Source: Methanothrix sp. (GTDB taxonomy: Archaea; Halobacteriota; Methanosarcinia; Methanotrichales; Methanotrichaceae). Taken from it: DNA of 64,000 nucleotides. The notes beneath the pieces were generated by a model that had not been told where the DNA came from, searched no databases, and saw nothing but the letters and a program-made list of their open reading frames with translations. The position numbers and the translations under genes are program-made. The stretch spans positions 83,539 through 147,538 of the forward strand of contig JBAXWY010000002.1 of assembly GCA_037128175.1 (NCBI GenBank). Reading direction: 5' to 3'. Positions 13,332 to 53,475 of this stretch are shown here, piece after piece. The first letter of the stretch is position 1. Each line of letters begins with the position of its first letter.

Positions 13332-14468
13332 TTGAAAAAGATAAGGTTGGCAATCGCGGGCTTGGGAAACTGCGCAAGTTCCCTGATTCAGGGGATCGAA
13401 TATTATAAACATACGGATGAGAAAGAATGCATCGGACTTATGCATTATGATGTATGTGGTTACAGAGCTGGCGATATCGATGTGGTAGCGGCCTATGACA
13501 TAGATGTGCGAAAGGTGGGAAAAGACGTAAGCCAGGCCATATTTGCGCCACCCAACTGCACCAAGATTTTCTATCCTGATGTTCCCCGCAAAAACGTCGA
13601 GGTCAAGATGGGGCCGGTTTTAGACGGCGTTGCTCCTCATATGCTTAATTATCCTGAGGACAAGAGATTCGTCGTAGCTGATGCCAAGCCATGCGACGTG
13701 AGAAGAGAGCTGGTAGAGAGCCGCGCTGATGTGCTGGTAAATTATATGCCGGTCGGCTCGGAAGAGGCCACGCGCTTTTATGCGCAAGCTGCCTTAGATG
13801 CGGGAGTAGGCTTTGTTAACTGCATGCCGGTCTTCATCGCCTCCAACCCAACGTGGGCCAGAAAGTTCCAGGAGGCAGGGGTGCCAATTGTTGGCGACGA
13901 CATAAAATCTCAGATCGGTGCCACCATTGTGCATCGCGCTCTCACCCAGCTCTTCAAAGACAGAGCCTGCGTCCTGGACAGAACCTACCAGCTCAACATT
14001 GGCGGGAATACCGATTTCCTGAATATGCTCAATCGGGAGAGGCTGAAATCCAAGAAGATCAGCAAGACGGAAGCTGTGCAGTCTATTCTGGATGTGCCCA
14101 TGAACGATGATGACATACACATCGGCCCATCCGACTATGTGCCCTGGCAAAAAGACAACAAGGTCTGCTTCCTGAGAATGGAAGGCAGGGTCTTTGGAGA
14201 TGTGCCCATTAATCTCGAGCTGCGCCTCTCCGTGGAGGACTCGCCCAACAGCGCAGGAAGCTCCATTGATGCCATAAGGATCTGCAAGCTGGCCAAAGAC
14301 AGAAAGATAGGAGGGCCGCTTCTAGCCATATCCGCTTATACTATGAAGCATCCGCCGGTGCAGTATCCAGATGACGTGGCAAAAGAGATGGTGAATAAAT
14401 TCATCCTGGGAGATGCAGGCGAACGGGAGAATGCCAAAGCCTCGCTAGCCGCAGGCTGTGATGGGTGA
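13332..14468 (+). CDS. ino1: myo-inositol-1-phosphate synthase
   Basis: GLGNCASS, GDDIKSQIGAT, NIGGNTDFLNM and VEDSPNSAG motifs; TTG start inferred. Confidence 0.93.
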   Translation: MKKIRLAIAGLGNCASSLIQGIEYYKHTDEKECIGLMHYDVCGYRAGDIDVVAAYDIDVRKVGKDVSQAIFAPPNCTKIFYPDVPRKNVEVKMGPVLDGVAPHMLNYPEDKRFVVADAKPCDVRRELVESRADVLVNYMPVGSEEATRFYAQAALDAGVGFVNCMPVFIASNPTWARKFQEAGVPIVGDDIKSQIGATIVHRALTQLFKDRACVLDRTYQLNIGGNTDFLNMLNRERLKSKKISKTEAVQSILDVPMNDDDIHIGPSDYVPWQKDNKVCFLRMEGRVFGDVPINLELRLSVEDSPNSAGSSIDAIRICKLAKDRKIGGPLLAISAYTMKHPPVQYPDDVAKEMVNKFILGDAGERENAKASLAAGCDG

Positions 14469-15842
14469 ACTACCGCGTCCTGAAGGGCGCGGCTTCCCAC
14501 TTCATCGCCAAAACTTGCCTCACAGATATGTGATGTAGAGATTTCGACTCGATGGGCGCTACGGGCTGTTCCATCCCTGAGATGAGTATGTTCCTGGAAG
14601 CATTGTAGTCTCGATTGCATGAGAAGTCGCAATAAGGGCACTCATGTACTCGTACCGACAGATCTTTCTTTACGATGCTTCCACAAGCGGAACACCTTTG
14701 AGTGGTATTTCTGGGATCTACTTTTATCAACTTTCGACCAGCACTTTGAGCCTTGTACGAAAGCATGAATATGAATTTTGACCAGGATGCATCATGTATG
14801 CTGCGATGCATACCATTATTATGGCCTTTCTCTTTCAGACCTTTGACATCAAGATCCTCAACACAAATGATATCAAAGTTATTGACATAGGTACGAGATA
14901 ACTTATGCAGGAAATCGTCTCGTTGACAGTTGATTCTCTTATGCAGCTTGGCGATCTTATCCTTGAGGGACTTATAATTATTAGATCCCCTCACCGCTCT
15001 GGCTAGCTTTCTTTGCAGCTTTGCCAGTTTATCAGCAGATTGCTCGGCACATCTTGGATTCTCTATCTCATTGCCTTCGGAATCAACCACGAAGGAAGTC
15101 AAACCGACATCCAGACCTACTGCTTCCTCGGTTTCTGGTAATGGCTGTGGTTCCTGATCGGCTTGGACTATGGCAAACCATCTCTTGCCTTCTCTCTTGA
15201 TTATGACGGCTTTGATGCAACCTTCGATCTTTCGATAGATCTTGATCCGCATTTCTCCGATCTTGGAGAGATGTAATATTCTATGATCTTGATCGATTTT
15301 GAAACCTGATTGGTTGTAATTTAGGGTGTTATACCAGCCATATCCTTTGAAACGGACATGACCGATCTTTCGACCATTCTTCTTGGATGCTGCAAGTCCC
15401 TTGAAATTAGACCAAAGGGTATAATTCACCATCTGAAGAACTTTAGAATAGACAAGATTCAGCTTCGGATTCTCAAGCTTCAGAGATGGAATCATGTTCT
15501 GAGTATCATAGGTCTTGAGCTTGATGCCTTTTTCTTTCGCTTCATTCAGGTCTTTGAGAAGCCGATTATAGAGCCATCTACAAGCATCCAAATTCTCCGC
15601 TAGCTTCCATTGAGTGATATTGCTCGGGAAGATGGGATACTTGTAGCTGATCATCAAACAAATACAGATATGCACACATAATATTTATATCAGTTGAGGG
15701 CGGCGTGAAAGTAATCATGGCAGGCAAAGGACTCCGCTTTCATCCTGTGGCTGACGTTGTCAGCCACTCCCCCGGGCTTGCAGTCCGGGAGACCACCCTG
15801 AAAGATGGGGACTTCCCGCTTCGTCCTTCGCAATCCTACAAG
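14465..15842 (-). mobile_element. IS200/IS605-family tnpB-only element (E1)
   Basis: right end hairpin CCGCGCCC-TTCA-GGACGCGG then GTTCAC; left end shared with the element at 53126-53198; TTTAA target at 15843-15847. Confidence 0.85.
14470..15654 (-). CDS. tnpB: RNA-guided endonuclease TnpB
   Basis: RuvC GLDVG / VEDL / NRDYNAS, Zn finger CSACG...CPYC. Confidence 0.93.
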   Translation of the reverse strand: MISYKYPIFPSNITQWKLAENLDACRWLYNRLLKDLNEAKEKGIKLKTYDTQNMIPSLKLENPKLNLVYSKVLQMVNYTLWSNFKGLAASKKNGRKIGHVRFKGYGWYNTLNYNQSGFKIDQDHRILHLSKIGEMRIKIYRKIEGCIKAVIIKREGKRWFAIVQADQEPQPLPETEEAVGLDVGLTSFVVDSEGNEIENPRCAEQSADKLAKLQRKLARAVRGSNNYKSLKDKIAKLHKRINCQRDDFLHKLSRTYVNNFDIICVEDLDVKGLKEKGHNNGMHRSIHDASWSKFIFMLSYKAQSAGRKLIKVDPRNTTQRCSACGSIVKKDLSVRVHECPYCDFSCNRDYNASRNILISGMEQPVAPIESKSLHHISVRQVLAMKWEAAPFRTR

Positions 15843-15859
15843 TTAAATAATTGTTCTTT

Positions 15860-16106
15860 CAATGATCAGGCAGGCTACGTTGTCTCTGGAAAGATCCGCA
15901 TTACCGTGGACGGCAAAAGCTGCGATCTGGGCCCGGGGGACAGCTACTTTGCCCCATCCGGCGCCCTGCACTCTGCCCTAGCTTTGCAGGAATCTGTGGT
16001 GGTCGATACATTCAGTCCGCCTAGAGTTGACTATCGCGCCCACCCTGTCGACGAGGGGCCTACTATCCAAACGATTATTAGTAATGAAATCAATAAGAAT
16101 CCTTGA
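15860..16106 (+). pseudogene. 5'-truncated cupin domain gene
   Basis: QAGYVVSG...GDSYFAPSGALHS...DTFSPPR cupin C-half; the upstream part of the ORF is IS left-end sequence. Confidence 0.65.
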
Positions 16107-51939: not shown

Positions 51940-53198
51940 ACGCTCCCCGCCCTAAAGGACGGGGATTCTATCGCTTTTGCGAACAGACTGCATCCCCAGT
52001 CTGAGAATGTTGATTGCTGCATTGAGATCTCTGTCCATAGTCAAGCCACATTCCGAGCAGTTATGGATTCTTTCCGAGAGATCTTTTTTGACAATCATGC
52101 CGCACCGTGAGCACATCTGAGAAGTGTACTTGGGATCAACCAGGACAACCTTAGAGCCAGCGTATGCTGCTTTACTCGCGGTTGCTTTTACCAGCATTCC
52201 CCATGCAACGTCCGAGATGGATTTTGCTAGGTGATGATTCTTGAGCATATTCTGAATATCAAGATCTTCAAAGACTATTACGCCGAAACGGTTTACCAAT
52301 CGGCGACTAACCTGATTGGAGAAATCGGTTCTCTTGTCTCCGATTCTTTCATGAATTCTAGCCACCACTTTGGACGCTTTTCGTCTGAGAGAAGATCCTT
52401 TAGGAAGCTTATCGCGTTTGCTTTGTGCTTTGGCTAATGCCAACTCATCTTCTCGGAAGAATCTAGGATTATCAATCTTCTCGCCATTTGAGAGGGTGGC
52501 AAAGCTCGCCAAGCCTACATCGATTCCTACAACCGATCCATCTTTCCAAGGAGGCCGTGGGATATCTCCCATATCGACGGAGAAGCAAGCGAACCATTTA
52601 CCAGTTGGCATTCTGCGAATAGTACAGGTCTTAATCTTACCAACAATTGGCCGATGCAACTTGATCTTGATATCTCCAATCTTGGAAAGATGGAGCATTT
52701 CAGAATCCAACTCAAAACCAGATTGGGAGTACGTGATGCTATCGTATCTACTCTTTCCTTTGAACCTTGGAAACCCTGGTTCTTCTCCTGCCTTGACCCT
52801 TCGGAAGAACGCTTTGAACGCCAGTTCCACCCTAAGAGCTACATTCTGAAGAACCAGTGAATAGACATCCTTGAGTTCGGGTACCTCCAGCTTCAGTTGA
52901 GGTAATCTATCCTGAGTCTCAAATCGTTTAACCGTTCTTTGCTCAAGCTCCCACGCATTCTTTCGATATGCAAGCGTATCATTATAGACAAATCTGCAAA
53001 GCTCAAGTTGCCGTTCTAAGATAGTAACCTGAGATTTTGTAGGTTTGAGCCTGTAGCGATACGTTTTAAGCATTACTAGATTATTGATTTATGAGCTTAA
53101 ATAGTTATTGTTAGGCAGAAACAGGGGCAAAGGACTCCGCTTTCATCCCCACCCTGATGGATGGGGACTTCCCACTCCGTCCTTCGCAATCCTACAAG
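51936..53198 (-). mobile_element. IS200/IS605-family tnpB-only element (E3)
   Basis: right end CCCCGTCC-TTTA-GGGCGGGG...GTTCAC; left-end hairpin CCCCATCC-ATCA-GGGTGGGG; TTTAA target at 53199-53203. Confidence 0.87.
51952..53073 (-). CDS. tnpB: RNA-guided endonuclease TnpB
   Basis: YRYRLKP, GIDVG / FEDL / DRDLNAA RuvC, CSRCG...CSECG. Confidence 0.94.
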   Translation of the reverse strand: MLKTYRYRLKPTKSQVTILERQLELCRFVYNDTLAYRKNAWELEQRTVKRFETQDRLPQLKLEVPELKDVYSLVLQNVALRVELAFKAFFRRVKAGEEPGFPRFKGKSRYDSITYSQSGFELDSEMLHLSKIGDIKIKLHRPIVGKIKTCTIRRMPTGKWFACFSVDMGDIPRPPWKDGSVVGIDVGLASFATLSNGEKIDNPRFFREDELALAKAQSKRDKLPKGSSLRRKASKVVARIHERIGDKRTDFSNQVSRRLVNRFGVIVFEDLDIQNMLKNHHLAKSISDVAWGMLVKATASKAAYAGSKVVLVDPKYTSQMCSRCGMIVKKDLSERIHNCSECGLTMDRDLNAAINILRLGMQSVRKSDRIPVL

Positions 53199-53475
53199 TT
53201 AAATTTTTTTCAGGGATTGTCCTCCGAAGGGTGGCAGGGGTAGACCATGTGGGTTTTGTGTATGGTAATTAGTTCTACGACATTTTTCTAAGATATTTAT
53301 ATAATAGTAATCTCTCCAGGATTGTGCATTTATATTTTGGGCAGTATTGTTGTATCTAGTTACTTATATATTACTACAACACATATGTCGAATCACCAAT
53401 CACCACAGTTCTAATCAAAAAGACTTAAATTAAAGGAGTTCCTTTTATAACTAGAAACTACAAGGAGATTTCAAA

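Follow-up and report, generated by a model that had tools for sequence, protein, structure and literature searches.

The window analyzed in this study is a 64,000-nt stretch of a Methanothrix genome (referred to as G000, assembled in 98 contigs). Between ino1, the gene for myo-inositol-1-phosphate synthase, and the remnant of a cupin gene, this window carries a transposable element of the IS200/IS605 type that encodes TnpB. The ino1 gene ends with GAT GGG TGA (seen at 14460-14468), and GTGAAC is the right end of the element, as had been noticed in a first-pass annotation made from the sequence. That annotation proposed that the element had been inserted exactly into the ino1 stop codon, leaving the protein unchanged, and that this represented a stop-codon safe-harbour strategy. 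Our analysis indicates that this is very probably an ordinary TnpB element, and that the stop codon it supplies to ino1 is probably a tolerated by-product of its target motif and not the result of stop-codon targeting. The features on which the argument depends are listed below.

13332-14468, plus strand: ino1 (myo-inositol-1-phosphate synthase), 378 aa, whose stop codon TGA (14466-14468) lies inside the right end of the element
14441-14448, plus strand: lineage-specific patch CTCGCTAG, 8 nt as compared with 7 nt in relatives (alignment against 27 relatives)
14445-14464, minus strand: sequence flanking the right end, a predicted omegaRNA guide of 16-20 nt that is antisense to the 3' end of ino1 (position and TnpB model)
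14465-15842, minus strand: IS200/IS605-type tnpB-only element, 1,378 bp (four-copy alignment, empty site of the closest relative, and 103 related right ends)
14465-14580, minus strand: right end with the predicted omegaRNA scaffold, retained by full-length as well as mini copies and ending in an invariant GGTAGTTCAC
14473-14492, minus strand: right-end subterminal hairpin (DNA fold z = -2.74; none of 200 shuffles scored as well)
14470-15657, minus strand: tnpB, 395 aa, apparently intact (Pfam and alignment to ISDra2 TnpB)
15658-15842, minus strand: left end, with hairpins at about 15747-15808 (DNA fold)
15843-15847, minus strand: target and transposon-adjacent motif (TAM), TTTAA on the element strand and TTAAA on the plus strand

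Element, target site and predicted guide

The ends of the element were defined by alignment of the four long copies present in G000, which are 87-100% identical and share the ends GTGAAC (14465) and ...CCTACAAG (15842); the base just outside the right end, on the ino1 side, varies among them. When read in the tnpB sense, the element starts with CTTGTAGG... and ends with ...GGTAGTTCAC, the right end being GTGAAC on the plus strand. Terminal inverted repeats are absent, as CTTGTAGG... and ...GTTCAC are not inverted repeats of each other, and folding of single-stranded DNA predicts hairpins at both ends. The encoded protein matches the Pfam families OrfB_IS605 (PF01385, E = 5e-27), Cas12f1-like TNB (PF07282, E = 1.1e-23) and HTH_OrfB_IS605 (PF12323, E = 2.5e-5), and residues 10-358 align with ISDra2 TnpB (chains 8bf8/8h1j, E = 1e-37), including both CxxC pairs of the zinc finger and the acidic residues, which we take to be the RuvC catalytic residues. 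Neither open reading frames (ORFs) nor Pfam searches revealed a tnpA gene inside the element; all Y1_Tnp (PF01797) matches in G000, five places at four loci, all above the cut-off and one interrupted by TAG, lie elsewhere. As judged from its sequence, the element is an ordinary IS200/IS605 member of the tnpB-only (IS1341-like) group, and Y1 TnpA transposases from other loci of the genome probably mobilise it in trans.

The first-pass annotation had expected an empty allele of this site in relatives, and such alleles exist. In the closest relative, G012 (locus L020), the sequence reads ...GCAGGCTGTGATGG followed immediately by TTAAATAATTGTTCTTTCAAT..., so that both flanks found in G000 are joined with nothing gained or lost. 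Cutting out 14465-15842 in silico yields GATGG followed by TTAAATAATTG, which is present verbatim in G012 and in metagenome contig L270; a second metagenome contig, L271, has the same empty junction up to ...AATTGT. A contig of sequencing run X7 also represents an empty allele, the element being skipped between ino1 and TTAAAT. Note that the sequencing runs were examined as Logan contigs, which carry no RNA ends, strand or level, and that the RNA run X15 gave fragmentary contigs with joints from other copies.

The target motif is the same at most copies. The first 24 nt of the left end occur at 10 places in G000, preceded by TTTAA at eight of them and by ATTTA and TTTAG at one each; TTAAA (plus strand) adjoins the left end in three of the four long copies, and TTTAA precedes it in 47 of the 55 copies with paired ends described below. 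When 54 paired-insertion flanks were compared by BLAST with G000 and the collected loci, seven candidate empty sites were obtained, of which two were exact (those for L142 and L147, in G000), the others having diverged or being displaced by 1-3 nt or more. The element is inserted 3' of TTTAA without target duplication, the empty sites being simply flank plus flank, in agreement with the IS200/IS605-type insertion 3' of a short motif that had been proposed. This target is not new here, because TTTAA, deduced from left-end flanks, has already been published as the TAM of an archaeal protein, SisTnpB1 from Sulfolobus islandicus (bioRxiv 10.1101/2023.03.06.531077).

Outside the right end, the flanking sequence is CCATCACAGCCTGCGG..., antisense to the 3' end of ino1 as the first-pass annotation had written it, and matches the empty allele of G012, next to TTTAA, over its first 17 nt. 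In an alignment of 24 sequences, the last ~116 columns are conserved, and nine of 27 predicted pairs carry compensatory changes, mostly in the terminal hairpin, where stem pairs covary by CG-to-UA and GC-to-AU/CG replacements. The final GGTAGTTCAC, which also contains the tnpB stop codon, is invariant. A scan of 14200-16100 with Rfam (E up to 1) gave no match, and thereby no group I intron. By analogy with characterised relatives (bioRxiv 10.1101/2023.11.20.567912), the tnpB/omegaRNA pair would be expected to take its guide from the ino1 flank and to cut empty alleles adjacent to TTTAA.

Other traces of the family were observed in this genome and across the genus. A solitary left-end fragment is present in the window at 53126-53204 (G000:C2:136664-136742), with TTTAA before it and no right end nearby. 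Micro-elements of ~66 bp, at G000:C1:147891 (plus) and G000:C1:2509 (minus), consist of a left-end portion (its first ~55 nt) fused directly to a short terminus that resembles the right end and finishes with GTTCAC, and TTTAA precedes each of them. Longer mini-derivatives, comprising the left end and the last 133-400 nt, are numerous across the genus. Those of G012 are 98-100% identical to the window copy, the host flanks being ~95-97% identical, and this closer similarity suggests recent activity of the lineage. One 3.6-Mb Methanothrix assembly (G027) contains more than 20 copies of the element family (loci L202-L222, L236, L245 and L262), suggesting a burst in that lineage. Two short contigs binned as Deltaproteobacteria and Negativicutes metagenome-assembled genomes (L228 and L264) carry the element with 77-84% protein identity, which could be due either to binning error or to transfer.

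The reading frame of ino1

The ino1 product matches the expected family (Pfam Inos-1-P_synth, PF01658, E = 3.5e-36), and the gene is 98% identical at the DNA level to its ortholog in G012. The G012 ORF (L020 1133-2272) encodes 379 aa and ends with ...ENAKACRPQAVMVK (AVMVK), the codons being GCT GTG ATG GTT AAA TAA. TTAAA therefore represents the Val-Lys codons in this empty allele, translation stops at the TAA that follows, and the site of insertion falls within the penultimate codon, between G and TT. The genus-typical tail (a small residue and then K or R) was found in 24 of the 28 relatives read, and the TAA of TTAAA is an in-frame ino1 stop in only one of the 28 (G020, in which the tail has been lost). 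Thus, the notion that the element sits in the ino1 stop codon did not survive comparison with real empty alleles. Insertion without duplication would have occurred 3' of a TTTAA formed in the ancestral ino1 by its last two sense codons (GTT AAA).

In G000, ino1 ends on the element TGA because a lineage-specific +1 base shifted the frame. This extra base lies in the patch 22 nt upstream of the insertion point and puts the gene in the frame that reaches the TGA of the element. The 8-nt patch was seen only with the element (metagenome contigs L268 and L269, same strain as G000), and the 7-nt patch was seen only in the empty contigs L270 and L271, which belong to ~91% identical lineages. As a result, the last nine residues in G000 differ from those of the empty alleles (SLAAGCDG versus CRPQAVMVK), contrary to the suggestion that the protein was left unchanged. 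The tail following ...NKFILG varies in both length and sequence across the genus (L020-L048); none of it remains in G020, and run X3 has yielded another allele with a deletion. The C-terminal tail of ino1 is dispensable, fast-evolving and labile. The possibility that the patch, 17-24 nt from the motif, is a repair scar left by TnpB cutting was considered and found unsupported, since its two substitutions lie at positions variable among relatives and since, the site being filled, this idea also demands re-insertion. The perfect-looking rebuilt stop should be viewed with caution, as it holds only in the derived frame of one strain.

Stop codons among TTTAA sites

The swap of stop codons itself is as the first-pass annotation described it, with the TTTAA target (sense T-TAA-A) exchanged for G-TGA. 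The right end ...TCAC and the target T-TAA-A on the opposite strand are in the same register, T/TAA-A becoming G/TGA-A upon insertion. Frames that stop at the TAA of the target still stop at the same place, an outcome dictated by the sequences of the element end and its target. To follow this across the family, right ends were taken from G000, from 78 regions in rows of a genus-wide DNA search (matches in 39 of 59 genomes) that reach the right end, and from 77 loci found by protein. Together these sources yielded 111 distinct right ends flanked by at least 330 nt of sequence; 103 of them terminate in GTTCAC. In 13 of these 103, at least 100 open codons, running antisense into the element, end on its TGA; the other two frames gave two and four. 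Pfam-supported products among the 13 are an IF-2B family protein, AglB, a NUDIX protein, a phosphoribosyltransferase, a malate/lactate dehydrogenase and Iso_dh. The stop position of orthologs is kept in at least four genes: IF-2B (12 of 13 loci), AglB (12 of 13, one being a codon longer), the dehydrogenase (1 of 1) and the phosphoribosyltransferase (ortholog in G000).

Five of the 13 are not clean stop-codon cases. The ORF at L115 encodes a fragment of Cas1 (profile positions 133-219 of 283), and its G000 ortholog extends 247 nt further; L177 lies inside a gene that continues for 1,367 nt in G000; and in L158 the first start codon is followed by only 12 codons. The remaining two, L142 (NUDIX) and ino1, each differ from their own empty allele by an upstream frame change. 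At L142, in G012, the NUDIX gene beside a mini-element ends on the element TGA, and the ortholog at the exact empty site (G000:C27) stops 16 nt earlier in another frame; after ino1, this is the second filled/empty pair in which the frame has changed upstream. The change of the last codon from NNT to NNG, if the displaced base is T, is synonymous in seven of the 13 and alters the residue in six, and an unchanged protein therefore cannot be taken as the rule. Other TnpB families in G000 (369-399 aa; C2:28968, C12:16836, C31:1612 and C57:10650) have a terminal hairpin of the same type as the window element and end with ...GGTAGTTGAC. These elements ending in ...GTTGAC were considered as a no-stop control and rejected, as they belong to different TnpB families and the two comparable copies have no flanking TTTAA.

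Whether copies prefer stop codons was examined by assigning sites to classes by one rule, using stop-to-stop ORFs of at least 100 codons. G000 contains 5,238 oriented TTTAA sites: 192 convergent-stop (3.7%), 219 co-directional-stop, 1,327 intergenic-like and 3,508 inside long ORFs. The 55 paired copies, classified at their reconstructed empty sites, comprise 7, 3, 35 and 11, respectively, with one copy counted in both stop classes. Insertions inside long ORFs are strongly depleted (odds ratio, OR, 0.12, p = 1.5e-12). When convergent stops are compared with intergenic-like sites, there is no enrichment among the 55 paired copies relative to the G000 sites (OR 1.38, p = 0.48), and the same is true for any stop compared with intergenic-like sites (OR 0.85, p = 0.86). 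Likewise, 13 of 103 right ends is no excess over the share of convergent stops among sites outside long ORFs (192/1,730 = 11.1%, p = 0.64). The comparison proposed in the first-pass annotation, in-frame TAA versus all TTAAA sites, thus gives a split answer, as stops are enriched relative to all sites and show no excess relative to sites that do not disrupt long ORFs. The enrichment vanishes because the sites where insertions are lost to selection have left the denominator. Selective loss of gene-disrupting copies is a sufficient explanation for the enrichment at stops, and the distribution agrees with insertion at random TTTAA sites and later elimination of the copies that are disruptive. The element TGA at convergent gene ends would then recur as often as expected from the supply of TTTAA sites outside genes and at their ends, after purging.

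Several points weigh against this reading. Relative to all TTTAA sites, convergent stops are enriched, both among the paired copies (7/55, OR 3.8, p = 0.004) and among the right ends (13/103 versus 3.7%, 3.4-fold, p = 1e-4), and design may contribute to this enrichment. The null was derived from one genome (G000), with ORFs standing in for gene calls. For 47 of the 103 right ends, no left end was found by search pattern, and these enter the right-end count only; one further flank was too short. Copies occupying orthologous positions in separate species were counted as one only when 30 nt of their flanks matched exactly, and the counts are not fully independent. At ino1, frameshift and insertion are fully linked in all alleles seen (three filled and shifted alleles, all of one strain, and at least 26 empty and unshifted ones), which would also fit a selected, compensatory link. 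Finally, a single-sequence RNA fold of the predicted omegaRNA is no better than shuffles (z = -0.31).

The adaptive alternative is that selection shaped the motif (TAA on both strands) and the right end (TCA/TGA) for silent insertion at TAA stops, making these stops a safe harbour. We consider this quite unlikely, even though the geometry is real, the element TGA keeps the ortholog stop position in the genes named above, and convergent stops, besides being enriched over all TTTAA sites, are not depleted relative to intergenic-like sites and so behave as harmless. In addition, the terminal 10 nt of the right end are invariant over TnpB identities of 63-100%, with the adjacent stem covarying. 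However, this terminus holds the tnpB stop codon and, by the family model, the right cleavage site and the scaffold-guide junction as well, and its conservation therefore needs no stop-codon explanation. Moreover, convergent stops show no excess over other non-disruptive TTTAA sites, and co-directional stops, which should be equally safe, are if anything below expectation (3 versus 35, OR 0.52, not significant). The other TnpB elements of G000, ending in ...GTTGAC, have no stop in that register, the index case at ino1 is not a stop-codon insertion in the ancestral frame, and the last residue would be changed in 6 of the 13 abutting cases. Another reading, which strikes us as rather unlikely, is that TAA on both strands of the motif, together with an antisense TGA in register, makes convergent-end insertions silent by construction, and that host genes can re-tune onto the element stop, as ino1 may have done by way of a compensatory +1 frameshift.

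For ino1 itself, we regard it as possible, and no more than tentatively so, that the insertion came first, replacing Val-Lys by an element-read tail of ~24 residues, and that a +1 frameshift was then selected, as it gave near-native length via the element TGA. The ancestral frame does run through ~24 added codons of the element before reaching TAG, 71 nt in; the extra base is found only together with the element; and that two rare events should fall 22 nt from each other within a single short lineage suggests a link. On the other hand, an intermediate allele, either shifted and empty or filled and unshifted, was not present in the only four metagenome contigs that matched. Frameshift first is an equally simple order, and in another alternative the patch first acquired a TGG-to-TAG change and the insertion, by then silent, followed. 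Since the tail is dispensable and indel-prone (G020, run X3), selection for repair need not have been strong. It is highly improbable that the junctions or the extra base are errors in a metagenome-assembled genome. G000 is indeed fragmented, and repeats often break such assemblies, but contigs of run X1 cover 14200-14494 and 15773-16100, including both filled junctions, with no differences, and L268 and L269 carry the filled locus with the same patch and junction at 99.92-99.98% identity to G000. All three may, however, represent one population that is not independent of the source of the assembly. With regard to ino1, then, an ordinary element whose TGA is tolerated at the end of a labile tail is still the reading that we prefer.

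The cupin remnant and comparable systems

Downstream of the element lies one further feature:

15862-16106, plus strand: cupin gene remnant, 5'-truncated (comparison with L020; Pfam Cupin_2 covers profile 20-56 of 70)

At 15861/15862, G000 is without 131 bp that are present in G012 (L020 2286-2416), and the junction shows 2 nt of microhomology. The cupin start and its HAHPH metal-binding motif lay in the lost segment. Because the empty-site contig L271 has its own, different deletion of the same cupin region without the element, the cupin gene appears, on comparison of these sequences, to be decaying independently of the element. An ORF of 133 aa at 15705-16106 (plus), as a gene caller would report it, is a chimera, its first ~52 codons coming from the left end of the element and the rest from the truncated cupin.

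Some integrating elements, such as those that enter tRNA genes, restore the 3' end of the gene that they target, using site-specific recombinases and a duplicated attachment core. Similar to these, the inserted DNA described here replaces a displaced gene end, but the window element does so without duplication, by a mere 4-nt coincidence of register. Among characterised TnpB systems, ISDra2 TnpB with its omegaRNA (8bf8, 8exa, 8h1j) resembles the window system in the size of TnpB and in the position of the scaffold, predicted in the window, at the 3' end, where it overlaps the end of tnpB and runs into the flank. It differs in that the alignment is distant and in that the window element has no internal tnpA and uses TTTAA as its motif. 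SisTnpB1 is, like the present protein, an archaeal IS200/IS605 TnpB with the motif 5'-TTTAA; it belongs to another archaeal lineage, and the TTTAA elements of that preprint carry tnpA as well as tnpB (10.1101/2023.03.06.531077). IS1341-type, tnpB-only archaeal elements with sense-overlapping non-coding RNAs at their 3' end share with the window element the solitary tnpB and a conserved 3' non-coding RNA region, which is predicted in the window; the subject of that article is haloarchaea (PMC4615843). IStrons are also IS605/IS607-type TnpB elements that lower the cost of insertion into genes; theirs is lowered by RNA splicing, whereas harmlessness here, where present, arises only via landing at a stop codon, TAA becoming TGA (10.1101/2023.11.20.567912). 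No description of stop-codon replacement by IS200/IS605 ends was found in the literature searched, supplementary tables of motifs and insertion sites being outside its scope.

The swap of TAA for TGA is a rule of this element family, and it explains how copies can sit exactly on gene ends without damage to the annotation. The ino1 locus also provides a clean natural pair of filled and empty sites, with precise ends, a TTTAA motif, a predicted guide and many mini-derivatives, and should be useful for the mining of archaeal TnpB systems. If it is true that selection maintains the stop geometry, this would represent a sequence-encoded means of cost reduction for a DNA transposon, alongside the splicing of IStrons.

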